Source: a virus (Duplodnaviria; Caudoviricetes). Taken from it: 25,119 bases of DNA. A model generated the notes under the pieces. That model was not told the origin of the DNA. It saw only the letters and a program-made list of their open reading frames with translations, and did no database searches. Both the position numbers and the translations under genes were made by a program. The stretch lies in the IMG/VR virus record IMGVR_UViG_3300032303_000331, positions 1 to 25,119 of that record. One strand, written 5' to 3'. Within the stretch, counting starts at the first letter, position 1, and each line of letters begins with the position of its first letter. Shown here piece after piece: positions 6,301-21,939 of the stretch.

Positions 6301-6328
6301 ACGATAAATTAAATAAAATAAACTATTT

Positions 6329-6928: not shown

Positions 6929-6965
6929 TAAACATTTTATTTTTTAACTATATAATAAAAAAAGT

Positions 6966-8597: not shown

Positions 8598-9119
8598 ATG
8601 CCGTGCGCATTAACTCAAGGATATACTTTAGATTGTCGCGATAGTTTAGGCGGAATCGTTGAAGTTTACTTTACTGAAGCTGCAAACGTAACAACAACAA
8701 CCGAAGCAAGTGGTGTAATTACCGCTTTGACTAAGGCTGCGGGAAAACGTTTTTGGAAATATGCTTTAGTAAAAGATACTTCAATGTTTAACCAAACATT
8801 AAACGCTTCTGTACAAAACGGAACTGTTTTTTATGCGCAAGAACTTCAGATTATCCTTAACAAATTACAGACCAATACAAGAAATGAATTATTGTTATTG
8901 GCACAAAATAGTTTAGTTGCAGTCGCAAAAGATAGCAACGGAATTTATTGGTATTTAGGAAAAACACGTGGTATTGATATGACTGCAAATGCAGCTTCAA
9001 CAGGTACTGCGCAAGGTGACAGAAGTGGTTTCACTTTAACTTTCACAGGTTCTGAACCTGCTTTAGCGCCAAGTGTAACTTCAACTGTTTATAATGCGTT
9101 GGAAACACCGGGTGCTTAA
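8598..9119 (+). CDS. Major tail tube protein (putative)
   Basis: 173 aa; MPCALTQGYTLDCRDSLGG, NGTVFYAQEL, GTAQGDRSGFTLTFTGSE; follows the capsid gene. Confidence 0.65.
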   Translation: MPCALTQGYTLDCRDSLGGIVEVYFTEAANVTTTTEASGVITALTKAAGKRFWKYALVKDTSMFNQTLNASVQNGTVFYAQELQIILNKLQTNTRNELLLLAQNSLVAVAKDSNGIYWYLGKTRGIDMTANAASTGTAQGDRSGFTLTFTGSEPALAPSVTSTVYNALETPGA

Positions 9120-9148
9120 AACTTTGTTTTTCATAGGTTTATAGGTTT

Positions 9149-9183
9149 GCCGCCGGTCATTAATTTGGTCGGCGGTTTTTTTT
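9149..9183 (+). terminator. Intrinsic terminator
   Basis: GCCGCCGGTCA-TTAATT-TGGTCGGCGGT 11-bp stem (with G-U pairs) followed by a T run. Confidence 0.85.
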
Positions 9184-9200
9184 GTTCTGTCTTTTTACTT

Positions 9201-9420
9201 GTTCACGGGCGGTGAACGTTCACGAATACGTGAACATAAAGTAAGGGTATAACTTGACTTTTGTTATAACATAGTAAAGTTATAACTTGACAAAATCAGT
9301 AGTAATACTGCGACAATTACGGAAGTTATAAACACTTATTCGTACCATAAAATGTCATAAAACGCACTTTTTGATACGTATTTGTACCATATAAGTCATA
9401 TTTATACTTAATGTGCAACA
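9201..9420. repeat. Array of heterogeneous palindromes and inverted repeats (operator-like sites)
   Basis: GTTCAC-N5-GTGAAC (9201-9217) abutting GTTCACG-AATA-CGTGAAC (9218-9235); GTAAGGGTATAACTTGAC (9241-9258) and GTAAAGTTATAACTTGAC (9274-9291); TGTTATAACA (9262-9271); CAGTA-GTAA-TACTG (9297-9310); two 38-bp units at 9341-9378 and 9383-9420. Confidence 0.8.
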
Positions 9421-9446
9421 AATTACAATTTTGGCTATTTACCTAT

Positions 9447-9821
9447 ATGATTAGGTTCACGAAAGGACAGACACAAAATATTATACTTACTTTAACTGAA
9501 AAGCAGTTATTGACAAACCCAAATTACCTATTTGTCTTTAAAAATAGAAGCGCAAATACAGAAATAAAGTTTGTTAAATTAAATGCCACAGACGTAAGTT
9601 TGTACAAAGATAGGTACAATGAATTTAGCATTGTAACGAACACAAATTTTGGTTCTTCTTTAAATGGACAATATGTATATCAGGTTTACGAACAAGCAAG
9701 TACGTCAAATACCAACCCAACCGGATTGAATTTATTAGAAACGGGGATAATGGAATTAGTCGGAACGCCGTTTGAATTTACTGAATATTCAACAACAGAC
9801 ACATACACAATTAGACAATAA
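9447..9821 (+). CDS. Conserved phage virion-associated hypothetical protein (124 aa)
   Basis: ATG 9447 (MIRFTKGQTQNIILTLTEK) is preferred over 9411, which overlaps the palindrome array; GQYVYQVYEQ...LLETG motif; TAATG overlap with the portal gene. Confidence 0.6.
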   Translation: MIRFTKGQTQNIILTLTEKQLLTNPNYLFVFKNRSANTEIKFVKLNATDVSLYKDRYNEFSIVTNTNFGSSLNGQYVYQVYEQASTSNTNPTGLNLLETGIMELVGTPFEFTEYSTTDTYTIRQ

Positions 9822-11608
9822 TGGATTTACGCGTATTATCATTTGCAGAAGCACGTCAACCTGAATTTAAGGAAAAAAAGGGTGAAGGATATATTCAGTA
9901 TGGCGACCGTAACGATTACCCAATTTATTTGGTTGAATTATTTAATAAGTCAGCTAAACACAATGCCATTGTAAAAAGCAAGGTGCATTATATTACAGGT
10001 AACGGTTGGAAGGGAAGCGACCAAGCTGAAACATTTATTCAGAAGGTTAATAGAATGGAATCTTTGGACGATTTGACCCGTAAGGTTTCATTGGACACAG
10101 AATTGTTTGGTGGCTATTATTTAGAAATTATTTGGTCAGTTACAAACCAATTGGCTGAAATATGGCATTTAGATTATACAAAAGTTCGTACAAATAAAGA
10201 CAATACGCAGTTTTGGTATAAAGAAGATTGGACAGATAGAACTGAAAAAGCTTTAATATACACGGCATTCAATCCAAACAACCCAACAGGTAAGCAAATT
10301 CTTTATGTTAAGGAATACCGCCCAAATATGGGTATTTATAGTTTACCGGGTTATTTTGGTGCTTTAAATTATATTGAATCAGACATTGAAATTTCCAAGC
10401 ACGTTTTAGGAAACGCACAAACAGGATTTAGCGCAAGTAAATTAATTACTTTGCCAAATGGCGAACCTTCAGACGAAGAAAAGCGTAATATTGAAAAGCG
10501 TTTCACAAATAGATTTAGCGGGTCAGACGGTAAGAAGTTCATTTTGGCTTTTGTTAACGATAGCGCAAGAAAGCCAATTGTTGACGATTTAGGCGCGTCG
10601 GATATTACCAAAGAAGACTTTGGACGTGTGGACACATTAATACAAACTAATATATTTAGCGGTCACCAAATTACAACGCCTTCAATATTCGGTATTGCTG
10701 AAGCGGGTAAATTGGGCGCACGTTCTGAAATGCGCGACGGTTACGAAATATTTAAAAATACTTACGTTAATAGTAAGCAAATGCACCTTGAAGGTGTATT
10801 TAATATGCTTGCGAAATATCGTGGTGTTGTTGACCCTGAATTAAGTATTATTCCAACTGAACCAATTGGCTTTGAATTTACTGAAAACTTATTAAAAGAA
10901 ATTGCACCAAAGGAATGGTTATTAGAAAAAGCAGGTATTGATATTACCAAATATCAAACAGTTGCACCTGTGGCACAACAAGCAGCATTTGCAGACGATT
11001 TTAGCGCATTTTATGATTTTGGCGAAGCAAAGGACGGTTTCAATGTTTGGAAGCAAAAAACACGCTTTAATGACGATTCTGAATACCAAATGTTTGCAGA
11101 CGTAAGCCAATTACAGGCAAACGTGCTTGATTTGATTGCAAAAGACAAAAGGGTAACGCCTGAAGTATTGGCAACAACGCTTGACCAAAATGTTGACACT
11201 ATTTCATTGGTTATAAAAGATTTAATTGACAAAGGGTATATTAATTCAAATGAATATACAATTGGCGAAGGAATTGACGGAAATACAATAATTGAACATA
11301 CTTTAACAGAACCAATTGGCGATATTTTAACAAAAATTCAGCCACAAACAAAGGAATTGTTAATTCGTTATTCTTATGAATGGAAAACAGGTTTTTCAAA
11401 TAAGGATAAAAAAACAAGCCGTCCATTTTGTGTTGCTTTATTAGACGCAAATAAAATGTATTCACGTTCTGAAATTGAATCAATAAGCGCACGTTTAGGA
11501 TATTCAGTTTGGGATAGGAAGGGCGGTTGGTACACAGTACCGGGAACGAACGAACACGAAGCAAGTTGCCGCCACCAATGGGTTTCAAACATAGTAACAA
11601 GAAAATAG
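9821..11608 (+). CDS. Portal protein with C-terminal extension (wHTH-like plus RPFC...CRHQW domain)
   Basis: YGDRNDYP, SAKHNAIV, FGGYYLEIIW, YSLPGY, IFSGHQITTPSIFGI portal motifs in the first ~380 aa; about 200 additional residues follow. Confidence 0.8.
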   Translation: MDLRVLSFAEARQPEFKEKKGEGYIQYGDRNDYPIYLVELFNKSAKHNAIVKSKVHYITGNGWKGSDQAETFIQKVNRMESLDDLTRKVSLDTELFGGYYLEIIWSVTNQLAEIWHLDYTKVRTNKDNTQFWYKEDWTDRTEKALIYTAFNPNNPTGKQILYVKEYRPNMGIYSLPGYFGALNYIESDIEISKHVLGNAQTGFSASKLITLPNGEPSDEEKRNIEKRFTNRFSGSDGKKFILAFVNDSARKPIVDDLGASDITKEDFGRVDTLIQTNIFSGHQITTPSIFGIAEAGKLGARSEMRDGYEIFKNTYVNSKQMHLEGVFNMLAKYRGVVDPELSIIPTEPIGFEFTENLLKEIAPKEWLLEKAGIDITKYQTVAPVAQQAAFADDFSAFYDFGEAKDGFNVWKQKTRFNDDSEYQMFADVSQLQANVLDLIAKDKRVTPEVLATTLDQNVDTISLVIKDLIDKGYINSNEYTIGEGIDGNTIIEHTLTEPIGDILTKIQPQTKELLIRYSYEWKTGFSNKDKKTSRPFCVALLDANKMYSRSEIESISARLGYSVWDRKGGWYTVPGTNEHEASCRHQWVSNIVTRK

Positions 11609-21147: not shown

Positions 21148-21152
21148 GTAAA

Positions 21153-21240
21153 TGCGTTATGCAACAACGCAGTATTAAATATATTGGGTCAAGGGTTTTA
21201 CAGGTAGTTGCATTGCCTGTTTGCCTGCGACCCTTTTTTT
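21153..21240 (+). ncRNA. Candidate cis-regulatory structured RNA (kissing-loop pseudoknot, terminator-like 3' end)
   Basis: Hairpin TGCGTT-ATGCAAC-AACGCA and hairpin ACAGGTA-GTTGCAT-TGCCTGT have exactly complementary 7-nt loops; outer stem GGGTC/GACCC is followed by T7. Confidence 0.6.
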
Positions 21241-21243
21241 ATT

Positions 21244-21939
21244 ATGGCAATATTTAGAAAAATACACGTCAGCTTTTGGAAGGACGAATTCATTGAAAGT
21301 CTGACACCTGAACAGAAGTTTTTTTATTTGTATTTAATGACAAATGACCGGACAACGCAATGCGGCATTTATGAAATTACAATAAAACAAATGTGTTATG
21401 ATACCGGGTATAATGAAGACACAATAAAAAAGCTAATTGAATTATTTACAAAATGTGGCAAAATTCAGTATTCTTTGGCAACAAAAGAAATTGCAATGAA
21501 GAATTGGCTGAAATACAATGATTCAACTTCACCAAAGGTAAAATCCTGTATAAACAAAGAACTTCTGAAGGTAAAAGATAGAGTATTGATACAGTATGCA
21601 TACAGTATGGATACACATACGCAAGAAGAAGAAGAAGAAGAACAAGAAGAAGAAGAAGAACAAGAAAAAGAACAAATTGATAATAAAATTTTGTTTTTAG
21701 ATAAAATTGAACCTTTTAAGGGTTTATTGGGGGAATCATACCAAGAATTTATTGATTATTGGTGCGAATCTTCAAAAAGTGGTAAATTGCGTTACCAAGC
21801 AGAAAAATTTTTTGACGTAAAACGCCGGGTTAATACTTGGCTTCAAAACAAATTAAAGTATGGAAATACAAAAAATACTGACCCAACCGCTTCAAGTCGC
21901 AAAAGAATGCAAGACTTACAAAATTGGGTTAATAGCTAA
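21244..21939 (+). CDS. Phage replication initiator / replisome organiser (N-terminal wHTH)
   Basis: Start at ATG 21244 (MAIFRKIHVSFWKD...LTPEQKFFYLYLMTN...CGIYEI); poly-E linker; C-terminal FIDYW...RVNTW domain. Confidence 0.75.
   Translation: MAIFRKIHVSFWKDEFIESLTPEQKFFYLYLMTNDRTTQCGIYEITIKQMCYDTGYNEDTIKKLIELFTKCGKIQYSLATKEIAMKNWLKYNDSTSPKVKSCINKELLKVKDRVLIQYAYSMDTHTQEEEEEEQEEEEEQEKEQIDNKILFLDKIEPFKGLLGESYQEFIDYWCESSKSGKLRYQAEKFFDVKRRVNTWLQNKLKYGNTKNTDPTASSRKRMQDLQNWVNS
21577..21675. repeat. Putative replication origin: four 11-bp iterons plus a GAA-rich tract inside the initiator gene
   Basis: GATAGAGTATT / GATACAGTATG / CATACAGTATG / GATACACATAC in tandem (21577-21620), then (GAA)n/CAA repeats. 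Confidence 0.55.

Follow-up and report, generated by a model that had tools for sequence, protein, structure and literature searches.

A variable cassette of sites resembling host toxin–antitoxin operators in a freshwater phage

Antitoxins of the AbiEi and HipB types autoregulate: AbiEi and Rv2827c bind inverted repeats in their promoters (PMC7319586), and the HipB protein of Legionella binds three promoter operators (PMC10653801). AbiEi has further been reported to bind AbiEii and to trigger its inactivating auto-phosphorylation; Lon-mediated loss of the antitoxin is the proposed trigger of a homologous system, and S. agalactiae AbiE in E. coli gave no protection against 32 phages (10.64898/2026.01.19.700257). 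Tests of an anti-phage role of the Bacteroidota toxin–antitoxin (TA) systems considered here did not turn up in a literature search; the mobile mystery proteins discussed below are each mentioned once in four papers. The operators of the AbiE/MenAT and HipBST systems are inverted repeats, often several at a fixed spacing, located at the start of an antitoxin-first operon (PMC7319586, PMC10653801), and the host sites described below occupy the same position. Unlike these operators, the array reported here lies on phage DNA that carries no cognate gene, and it packs unrelated families of sites together.

Phage DNA resembling host regulatory or TA sequences has been described in other forms. The pseudo-ToxI repeats of phage PhiTE, also non-coding, mimic a host TA locus or derive from one, and they expand or recombine to escape abortive infection; they act as an expressed RNA antitoxin mimic directed at one type III system (PMC3475682), whereas the present array appears to mimic the DNA operators of many protein antitoxins. 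The Spo0A boxes of the virulent Bacillus phages phi29 and Nf are likewise sites for a host regulator on a phage genome; they overlap phage promoters or origins and repress the phage through one global regulator (PMC2731898). In contrast, the present array is a free-standing, variable cassette of putative sites for patchily distributed TA regulators and has no fixed overlap with a promoter or origin. RNA anti-CRISPRs and phage nucleotide-sponge proteins (the latter PMC13434031) also counter defence by mimicry or sequestration; these are RNAs or proteins, whereas the array would be genomic double-stranded DNA that yields no gene product and acts through its copy number. By analogy, the array would be closest to pseudo-ToxI in aim and to the Spo0A boxes in material, while it lacks a feature that defines each of them. 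In the open-access literature, no description of TA operator arrays carried by phages was found.

Borders and sequence content of the array

The window, by which the whole stretch of 25,119 nucleotides analysed is meant, is an AT-rich phage segment containing prohead protease, capsid-like, portal, endolysin and Erf genes. The sequencing runs that contain its sequence are mostly freshwater or lake metagenomes, and one public contig, which may come from the source sample, is identical to the window over 9064-9900. Two contigs of this phage group were binned in one Chitinophagaceae MAG (G001), the sole pointer to the host, which would accordingly belong to this family.

The array is located within 9120-9446; a 173-aa gene and its terminator come before it, and a 124-aa gene, itself followed by the portal gene, comes after it (Table 1). 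The product of the upstream gene is likely the tail tube protein, and the best 80 of 260 relatives have 91-98% amino acid identity to it. The strong terminator that the first-pass annotation placed before the array was recovered, and a terminator-like hairpin followed by a T-run is present at the same place in the relatives displayed. The conserved motif at the right border is likely a phage late promoter, and similar words were found upstream of 6329 and 6966. A motif of the form CAAATT/ACATTT-N10-12-CTATWTA is common to 6301-6328, 6929-6965 and 9413-9441, before structural genes, and constitutes a candidate late promoter. RNA contigs of relatives end at 9138-9152 and resume at 9462-9465, a weak hint for the terminator and the promoter; they do not cover the array, and this gap is no evidence concerning it, since the source of the contigs is relatives at a greater distance (mostly <95% alike), whose loci may be empty at this position. 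Elsewhere in the window, the region of a replication-initiator-like gene (21148-21939) is variable among relatives: three or more unlike 5′ parts precede a common 3′ end, and a small hairpin-like element upstream of the region is conserved.

Table 1. Coordinates of the array, its modules and the flanking features within the window
Feature	Position	Strand	Remarks
Upstream gene, after major capsid gene	8598..9119	+	173 aa; phrog_19091 (unknown function); left anchor of locus
Intrinsic terminator	9149..9176	+	Fixed left border of array
AbiEi_2 site, N5 variant	9200..9217	.	Shares 17/18 bases with the core at the start of the AbiEi_2 gene in MAG G001 (L702)
AbiEi_2 site core, N6 variant	9217..9236	.	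As in hosts, a GTTCAC half-site lies 17 bp upstream
Paired mobile mystery protein A/B site	9241..9291	.	Units 9241-9258 and 9274-9291; 33-bp period
TGTTATAACA dyad in the spacer of the pair	9262..9271	.	Recurs in phage spacers
AbiEi_3-type compound site, GTTTAWAA-N13-RGTA-N7-TACY	9298..9333	-	Degenerate copy; contains dyad (c)
Conserved ACACTTATTCGTAC(G/C)ATAA stretch	9331..9354	.	In 21/79 loci
HipB/y4mF-type site, AAAGTGC-N8-GCACTTT class	9350..9371	.	One good half-site
Second XRE-like dyad	9381..9402	.	About 32 bp downstream of the 9350..9371 dyad
Conserved promoter-like motif	9413..9441	+	Fixed right border; kept, with variation, in relatives displayed
Gene before portal gene	9447..9821	+	124 aa; start at 9447 rather than 9411, from the homologous start in relatives
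Portal protein gene	9821..11608	+	phrog_11226, E 9e-33

The first-pass annotation described the array as non-coding DNA tiled by at least four families of dyads, among them (a) to (d). No ORF of at least 50 aa spans 9201-9410, which agrees with this description and led to the rejection of a coding remnant; a tRNA reading was rejected as well, there being no tRNA match. Both dyads of family (a), GTTCAC-N5-GTGAAC at 9201-9217 and GTTCACG-N4-CGTGAAC at 9218-9235, were found as described, as were the two units of (b), spaced 33 bp apart with the TGTTATAACA dyad between them. The (b) units deviate from the perfect palindrome by 3 bases and 1 base, respectively, and the perfect form is present in relatives L003, L042 and L047. 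Dyad (c) is present at 9297-9310 but belongs to a larger, 36-bp compound site. Of family (d), the two YGTACCATA words exist but the proposed 38-bp units do not: the words lie 42 bp apart within a 19-bp repeat of 84% identity, the first of them is private to the window (relatives have CGTACGATA), and the real unit is the dyad at 9350-9371. Perfect dyads with 6-bp arms and at least two G/C numbered four, against 0.58 in 500 shuffles (P 0.016), and dyad density by itself is thus modestly above chance; the plain palindrome count (6, 10 and 6 in three 220-bp bins around the array, up to 9 elsewhere) is unremarkable for this AT-rich window. The main support for the array, which is strong, comes from comparative evidence.

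Turnover among relatives and spread across viruses

A total of 79 loci with both flanking genes, namely the window and 78 relatives (from the best 80 of 260), were compared. The gap between the fixed terminator and the promoter-like motif ranges from 89 to 499 bp across these loci, and reaches 607 bp in a second set of relatives (best 80 of 409). A census of nine motifs found 34 of the 79 loci empty; a (b) unit occurs in 44 loci, the (d) dyad in 26, the (c) core in 17 and the (a) core in 3. Sisters that differ by less than about 1–2% in the flanking genes carry different modules (L029 versus L039), and among near-identical sisters one is empty (L044) whereas two contain modules (L036 and L045). 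Contigs from two studies cleanly lack 9183-9239, and one of them has that module further along. The array is therefore real and modular, and its units are gained, lost and reshuffled among related phages, an outcome for which the first-pass annotation had proposed to look. The array is also dispensable, because 34 of the 79 loci are empty and six empty relatives contain no array elsewhere in the genome portions displayed. A second small array of other dyads was observed upstream of another gene cluster in close relatives (L720:5660-5845 and L722:8196-8389, in G307 and G306), at a place beyond the part of the genome that the window covers.

This variability bears on the suggestion, made in the first-pass annotation, that the sites gate the portal operon. 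Host regulators bound to the array would in that case tune the adjacent late promoter or form a roadblock, so that the portal operon responds to the TA state of the host. The right end of the array is indeed separated from the conserved promoter-like motif by about 10 bp, and the Spo0A boxes that repress phi29 promoters supply a precedent (PMC2731898). Against this, the sites do not overlap the promoter-like motif, itself a putative promoter position, their order and distance vary freely, the portal operon of many relatives is preceded by an empty gap, and like arrays in other phages flank unrelated genes or lie in a coding frame. Gating is disfavoured by these observations, and a sensor acting in cis is regarded as improbable.

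The same comparisons largely refute a structured RNA or a set of sites for a phage-encoded protein, and we assign only a very slight probability to either. The region folds slightly better than shuffled sequences (z -1.9), yet it has no Rfam match, its modules reshuffle, and an unpairable A.G opposition occurs in 44 of 77 distinct units of the paired site in family (b), with variation that is non-compensatory; the array accordingly lacks the trait of a structured RNA repeat that marks pseudo-ToxI and Racr. As for a phage-encoded binding protein, neither an HTH_3 gene nor an integrase gene was found in five relatives searched, two of them complete, and an AbiEi_2 gene was found in none of four of these; a switch of the phage's own was rejected on the same ground, the cognate regulator and integrase genes not being found in the relatives searched.

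The paired site of family (b), referred to below as the mobile mystery protein (MMP) pair, is present in about 170 viral stretches. Grouped by their flanking genes, the first 80 of these form 15 clusters, and in 37 of the 80 the pair is accompanied by one or more other modules. No MMP-A/B or AbiEi_2 gene was found in 323 viral loci and the window. Among isolate phages, no match to the locus was found, nor any array-like match for two long arrays; the best isolate-phage match was set aside, since it sits before the cI gene of a Streptococcus prophage. Several further occurrences were observed. In the viral contig L647, the MMP pair and an AbiEi_2-like site with four half-sites lie inside a 630-aa frame, and the AbiEi_2 core of L091 is also within an open frame. 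In a second phage lineage (L081, L087, L093, L100, L104 and L732-L766), the arrays extend over several hundred bases, comprise many modules and adjoin a GTTCCA-NN-TGGAAC dyad of parS-like appearance.

Corresponding sites at host operon starts

The dyads were found at the starts of host TA operons, as the first-pass annotation had proposed to check, and matrices built from host sites alone single out the array within 25 kb for the main modules. For module (a), a host-only AbiEi_2 matrix scores 33.6 bits at 9217..9236, the next best score in the window being 0.8. The three-half-site pattern has about 290 matches in GTDB genomes, and the 120 listed span Bacteroidota, Verrucomicrobiota, Acidobacteriota and others. 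Relative to the inferred start of an AbiEi_2-like gene, as recognised with a profile built from 12 of them, 72 of these 120 matches lie at +1 to +30 bp; among the other 48 are orphans, contig ends, matches of low complexity and a single phage of this group. Pfam assigned 12 of 13 adjacent genes tested to PF09952, and one AbiEi_2 protein gave a weak HTH_Crp_2 match, below the cut-off; AbiEii-like nucleotidyltransferase genes come after the AbiEi_2-like genes in the loci viewed. Extra half-sites 17-18 bp away, a feature absent from the search pattern, flank 23 of 43 viral AbiEi_2 cores. Judged by its sequence, the N5 dyad is a genuine variant of the AbiEi_2 site, and the likeness of module (a) to the sites at AbiEi_2-AbiEii operon starts argues strongly for their identity. 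An AbiEi_2-type site was also observed between two tRNA-like sequences (by eye) in a 467-kb viral contig (L122:601-620).

For module (b), the host-only MMP matrix scores 23.0 and 27.2 bits for the two window units, against 14.1 for the next best. The paired pattern occurs in 14 of 301 genomes of the order of G001, and a reversed-pattern control in none; none of the first 5 genomes searched contained the exact pair. Seven of the 14 loci are at an intact MMP-A-like XRE gene, one is at a truncated gene, five are orphans and one is a phage. TIGR02612 scored above cut-off in four of four proteins tested and TIGR02613 (Fic protein) in two of two; MMP-A carries HTH_3, and TIGR02612 was not found in MAG G001. 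Host loci contain up to four units at 33 bp, and a period of 32-33 bp, likewise absent from the search pattern, is kept in 43 of 46 distinct pairs in the arrays. Module (b) thus matches the sites at mobile-mystery XRE-Fic operon starts, and the support for their identity is strong.

The remaining modules of the window are assigned at moderate strength or less. For module (c), a host-only AbiEi_3 matrix, built from 11 host sites and covering a second element at a distance of 13 bp, places 9298-9333 top in the window at 18.7 versus 14.0 bits, with a compound motif shape that had been chosen after the phage was seen; a simple 19-bp AbiEi_3 matrix did not rank this site within the window. An exact 15-bp AbiEi_3 core is shared by host L576 and phage L102 and is present in the AbiEi_3 promoter of G001. 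These data moderately favour a match of (c) to the site at AbiEi_3-AbiEii operon starts. A part of (d) shows a match of similar, moderate standing to a HipBST-type operon-start site: a host-only matrix from six HipBST-type promoters (L453, L490, L496, L507, L517 and L521) scores 17.0 bits at 9350..9371, where the next best is 8.3 and the host median 27.8, and a phage relative matches one HipBST-type host site at 21 of 23 bases. The AbiEi_3 and HipB-type copies of the window are degenerate, and host HipB-GTGC sites lie about 60 bp apart versus 32 bp in the window pair, so that native spacing is not kept there; the spacing is native in the phage copies of the AbiEi_2 (17 bp), MMP (32-33 bp) and AbiEi_3 (N13) sites. 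Inverted repeats at the starts of antitoxin-first operons are the common form of the AbiEi_2, MMP, AbiEi_3 and HipBST-type host sites.

Three dyads of the window (9262-9271, 9331-9354 and 9381-9402) carry no host assignment; host searches covered the last two and gave no signal. The 9331-9354 dyad had 5 matches versus 3 for the control in 151 host genomes, which is not above control. The (d) pair at a 32-bp period was found in one of 251 genomes, that one being a phage contig, and a looser form in none of 321; the single second unit had 5 non-phage matches versus 9 for the control in 201 genomes. Of 35 loci with a perfect (d)-type palindrome in a metagenome scan, 30 belong to phage-type arrays that contain other modules too, and at the remaining 5 there is no evident regulator gene.

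Further modules occur in the arrays of relatives. Promoters of DUF6088-AbiEii operons carry 30-bp dyads that are also seen there, and on alignment of promoters with arrays, 6 of 85 AbiEii-operon promoters exceeded the maximum of 170 shuffles, the best matching at 31 of 33 bases. At a fixed N16 spacing, none of 19 DUF6088 promoter dyads was counted; by eye, the TGTCCAG and TGTCAAG types agree between host and phage at N16, whereas TGTCAC is N17 in hosts and mostly N16 in phages and TGCATGA is N15 and N14, respectively, and the assignment of these last two types to DUF6088 is loose. Another HipB-type site of the relatives, TATACC-N6-GGTATA at a 40-bp spacing (L056, L073 and L187), is likewise present in HipBST-type promoters; with the HipB-ATACC matrix, the window did not stand out. 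Non-coding DNA from XRE loci (60.7 kb) gave 12 matches to the arrays and none after shuffling; most genes found in this survey of hosts were of the HipB type or were XRE genes preceded by small toxin-like genes (by eye), and no R-M controller sites came to light in the course of these searches. A GAGCCG-N16-CGGCTC module of one relative was found in one of 161 genomes, which gave no assignment. The AbiEi_2, MMP-A, AbiEi_3 and DUF6088 motifs were derived here from sequence and are candidate operators.

Orphan MMP or AbiEi_2 sites were also observed in bacterial chromosomes (L417, L418, L419, L421, L424, L208, L226 and L238), some of them adjoining an mnmE-like gene. In two Flavobacterium loci (L240 and L275), a metallophosphoesterase gene followed by an unclassified 330-aa gene and a nucleotidyltransferase-like gene lies near orphan AbiEi_2 and HipB-type sites. 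The orphan chromosomal copies indicate that such sites can persist without a cognate gene; they make up 5 of the 14 MMP loci and part of the 48 gene-less AbiEi_2 matches, and they speak against a decoy. They also favour a reading of the array as an accumulation of promoter scraps from host defence islands or co-infecting elements, piled up without function in a tolerant gap, and the MMP and AbiEi_2 remnants side by side in L417, the degenerate state of some phage copies and the many relatives without an array fit that picture as well. We nevertheless hold such neutral accumulation to be distinctly improbable, since only the dyads are kept, trimmed and overlapped, their half-sites and spacing are preserved where spacer letters vary, and the same set of modules recurs in unrelated gene contexts, even recoded inside an ORF.

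A possible decoy for host antitoxins

Neither a shared fold nor a coding remnant was found, and the association of the motifs with host TA promoters is strong; the cassette and the apparent origin of its main modules are well supported by these sequence comparisons. The host sites are very probably autoregulatory operators bound by the product of the first gene of the operon, with the phage copies bound too. On balance, the array is somewhat more probably than not a protein-free DNA decoy, which would titrate or hold host antitoxins during phage replication while toxins are kept neutralised. After replication, the many phage copies would out-compete the single chromosomal operator; the operon would be derepressed and fresh antitoxin made, while TA complexes bound to DNA would stay assembled. 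Toxins would then stay neutralised and abortive infection would fail, and the set of modules would follow the TA content of recent hosts. A counter-defence outcome of this kind is slightly favoured. Against this reading, the array is dispensable, the AbiEi_3 and HipB-type copies of the window are degenerate, S. agalactiae AbiE gave no protection in E. coli, and the single copy in each incoming genome can do little before replication. Derepression would moreover raise toxin along with antitoxin, and titration of antitoxin could in principle free toxin.

The last point is the core of an offensive variant, in which titration frees toxins or derepresses TA operons, and slower host translation or the exclusion of competitor phages benefits the phage. 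All of the sequence evidence fits this variant, which needs the same bound sites, and the toxin families involved are NTases, Fic proteins and HipA-type kinases. A small phage that lacks an integrase would presumably need host translation for its late genes, and the targeting of four to eight unrelated systems looks like broad cover rather than the use of one toxin; the offensive variant is therefore considered unlikely, and the counter-defence decoy is preferred. Extended to the group, there is about an even chance that an anti-TA library, protein-free and evolving, is present in several unrelated lineages of freshwater Bacteroidota phages, with host antitoxin operators acquired and swapped one module at a time, and that it disarms many TA defences at once through genome copy number.

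If this is true, phages would counter immunity by means of bare genomic DNA, a class that is invisible to gene-based screens for anti-defence functions, and the question of which chromosomal TA modules really act against phages would become testable. The arrays name candidates, namely AbiEi_2, AbiEi_3 and DUF6088 with AbiEii, HipBST-type systems and the uncharacterised mobile mystery XRE-Fic system, together with predicted operators for each. The contents of the arrays would then record the TA systems that restrict phages in nature, and modules without a host match would point to undescribed defence regulators. Even if titration fails, candidate operator motifs are gained for several little-studied antitoxin families.
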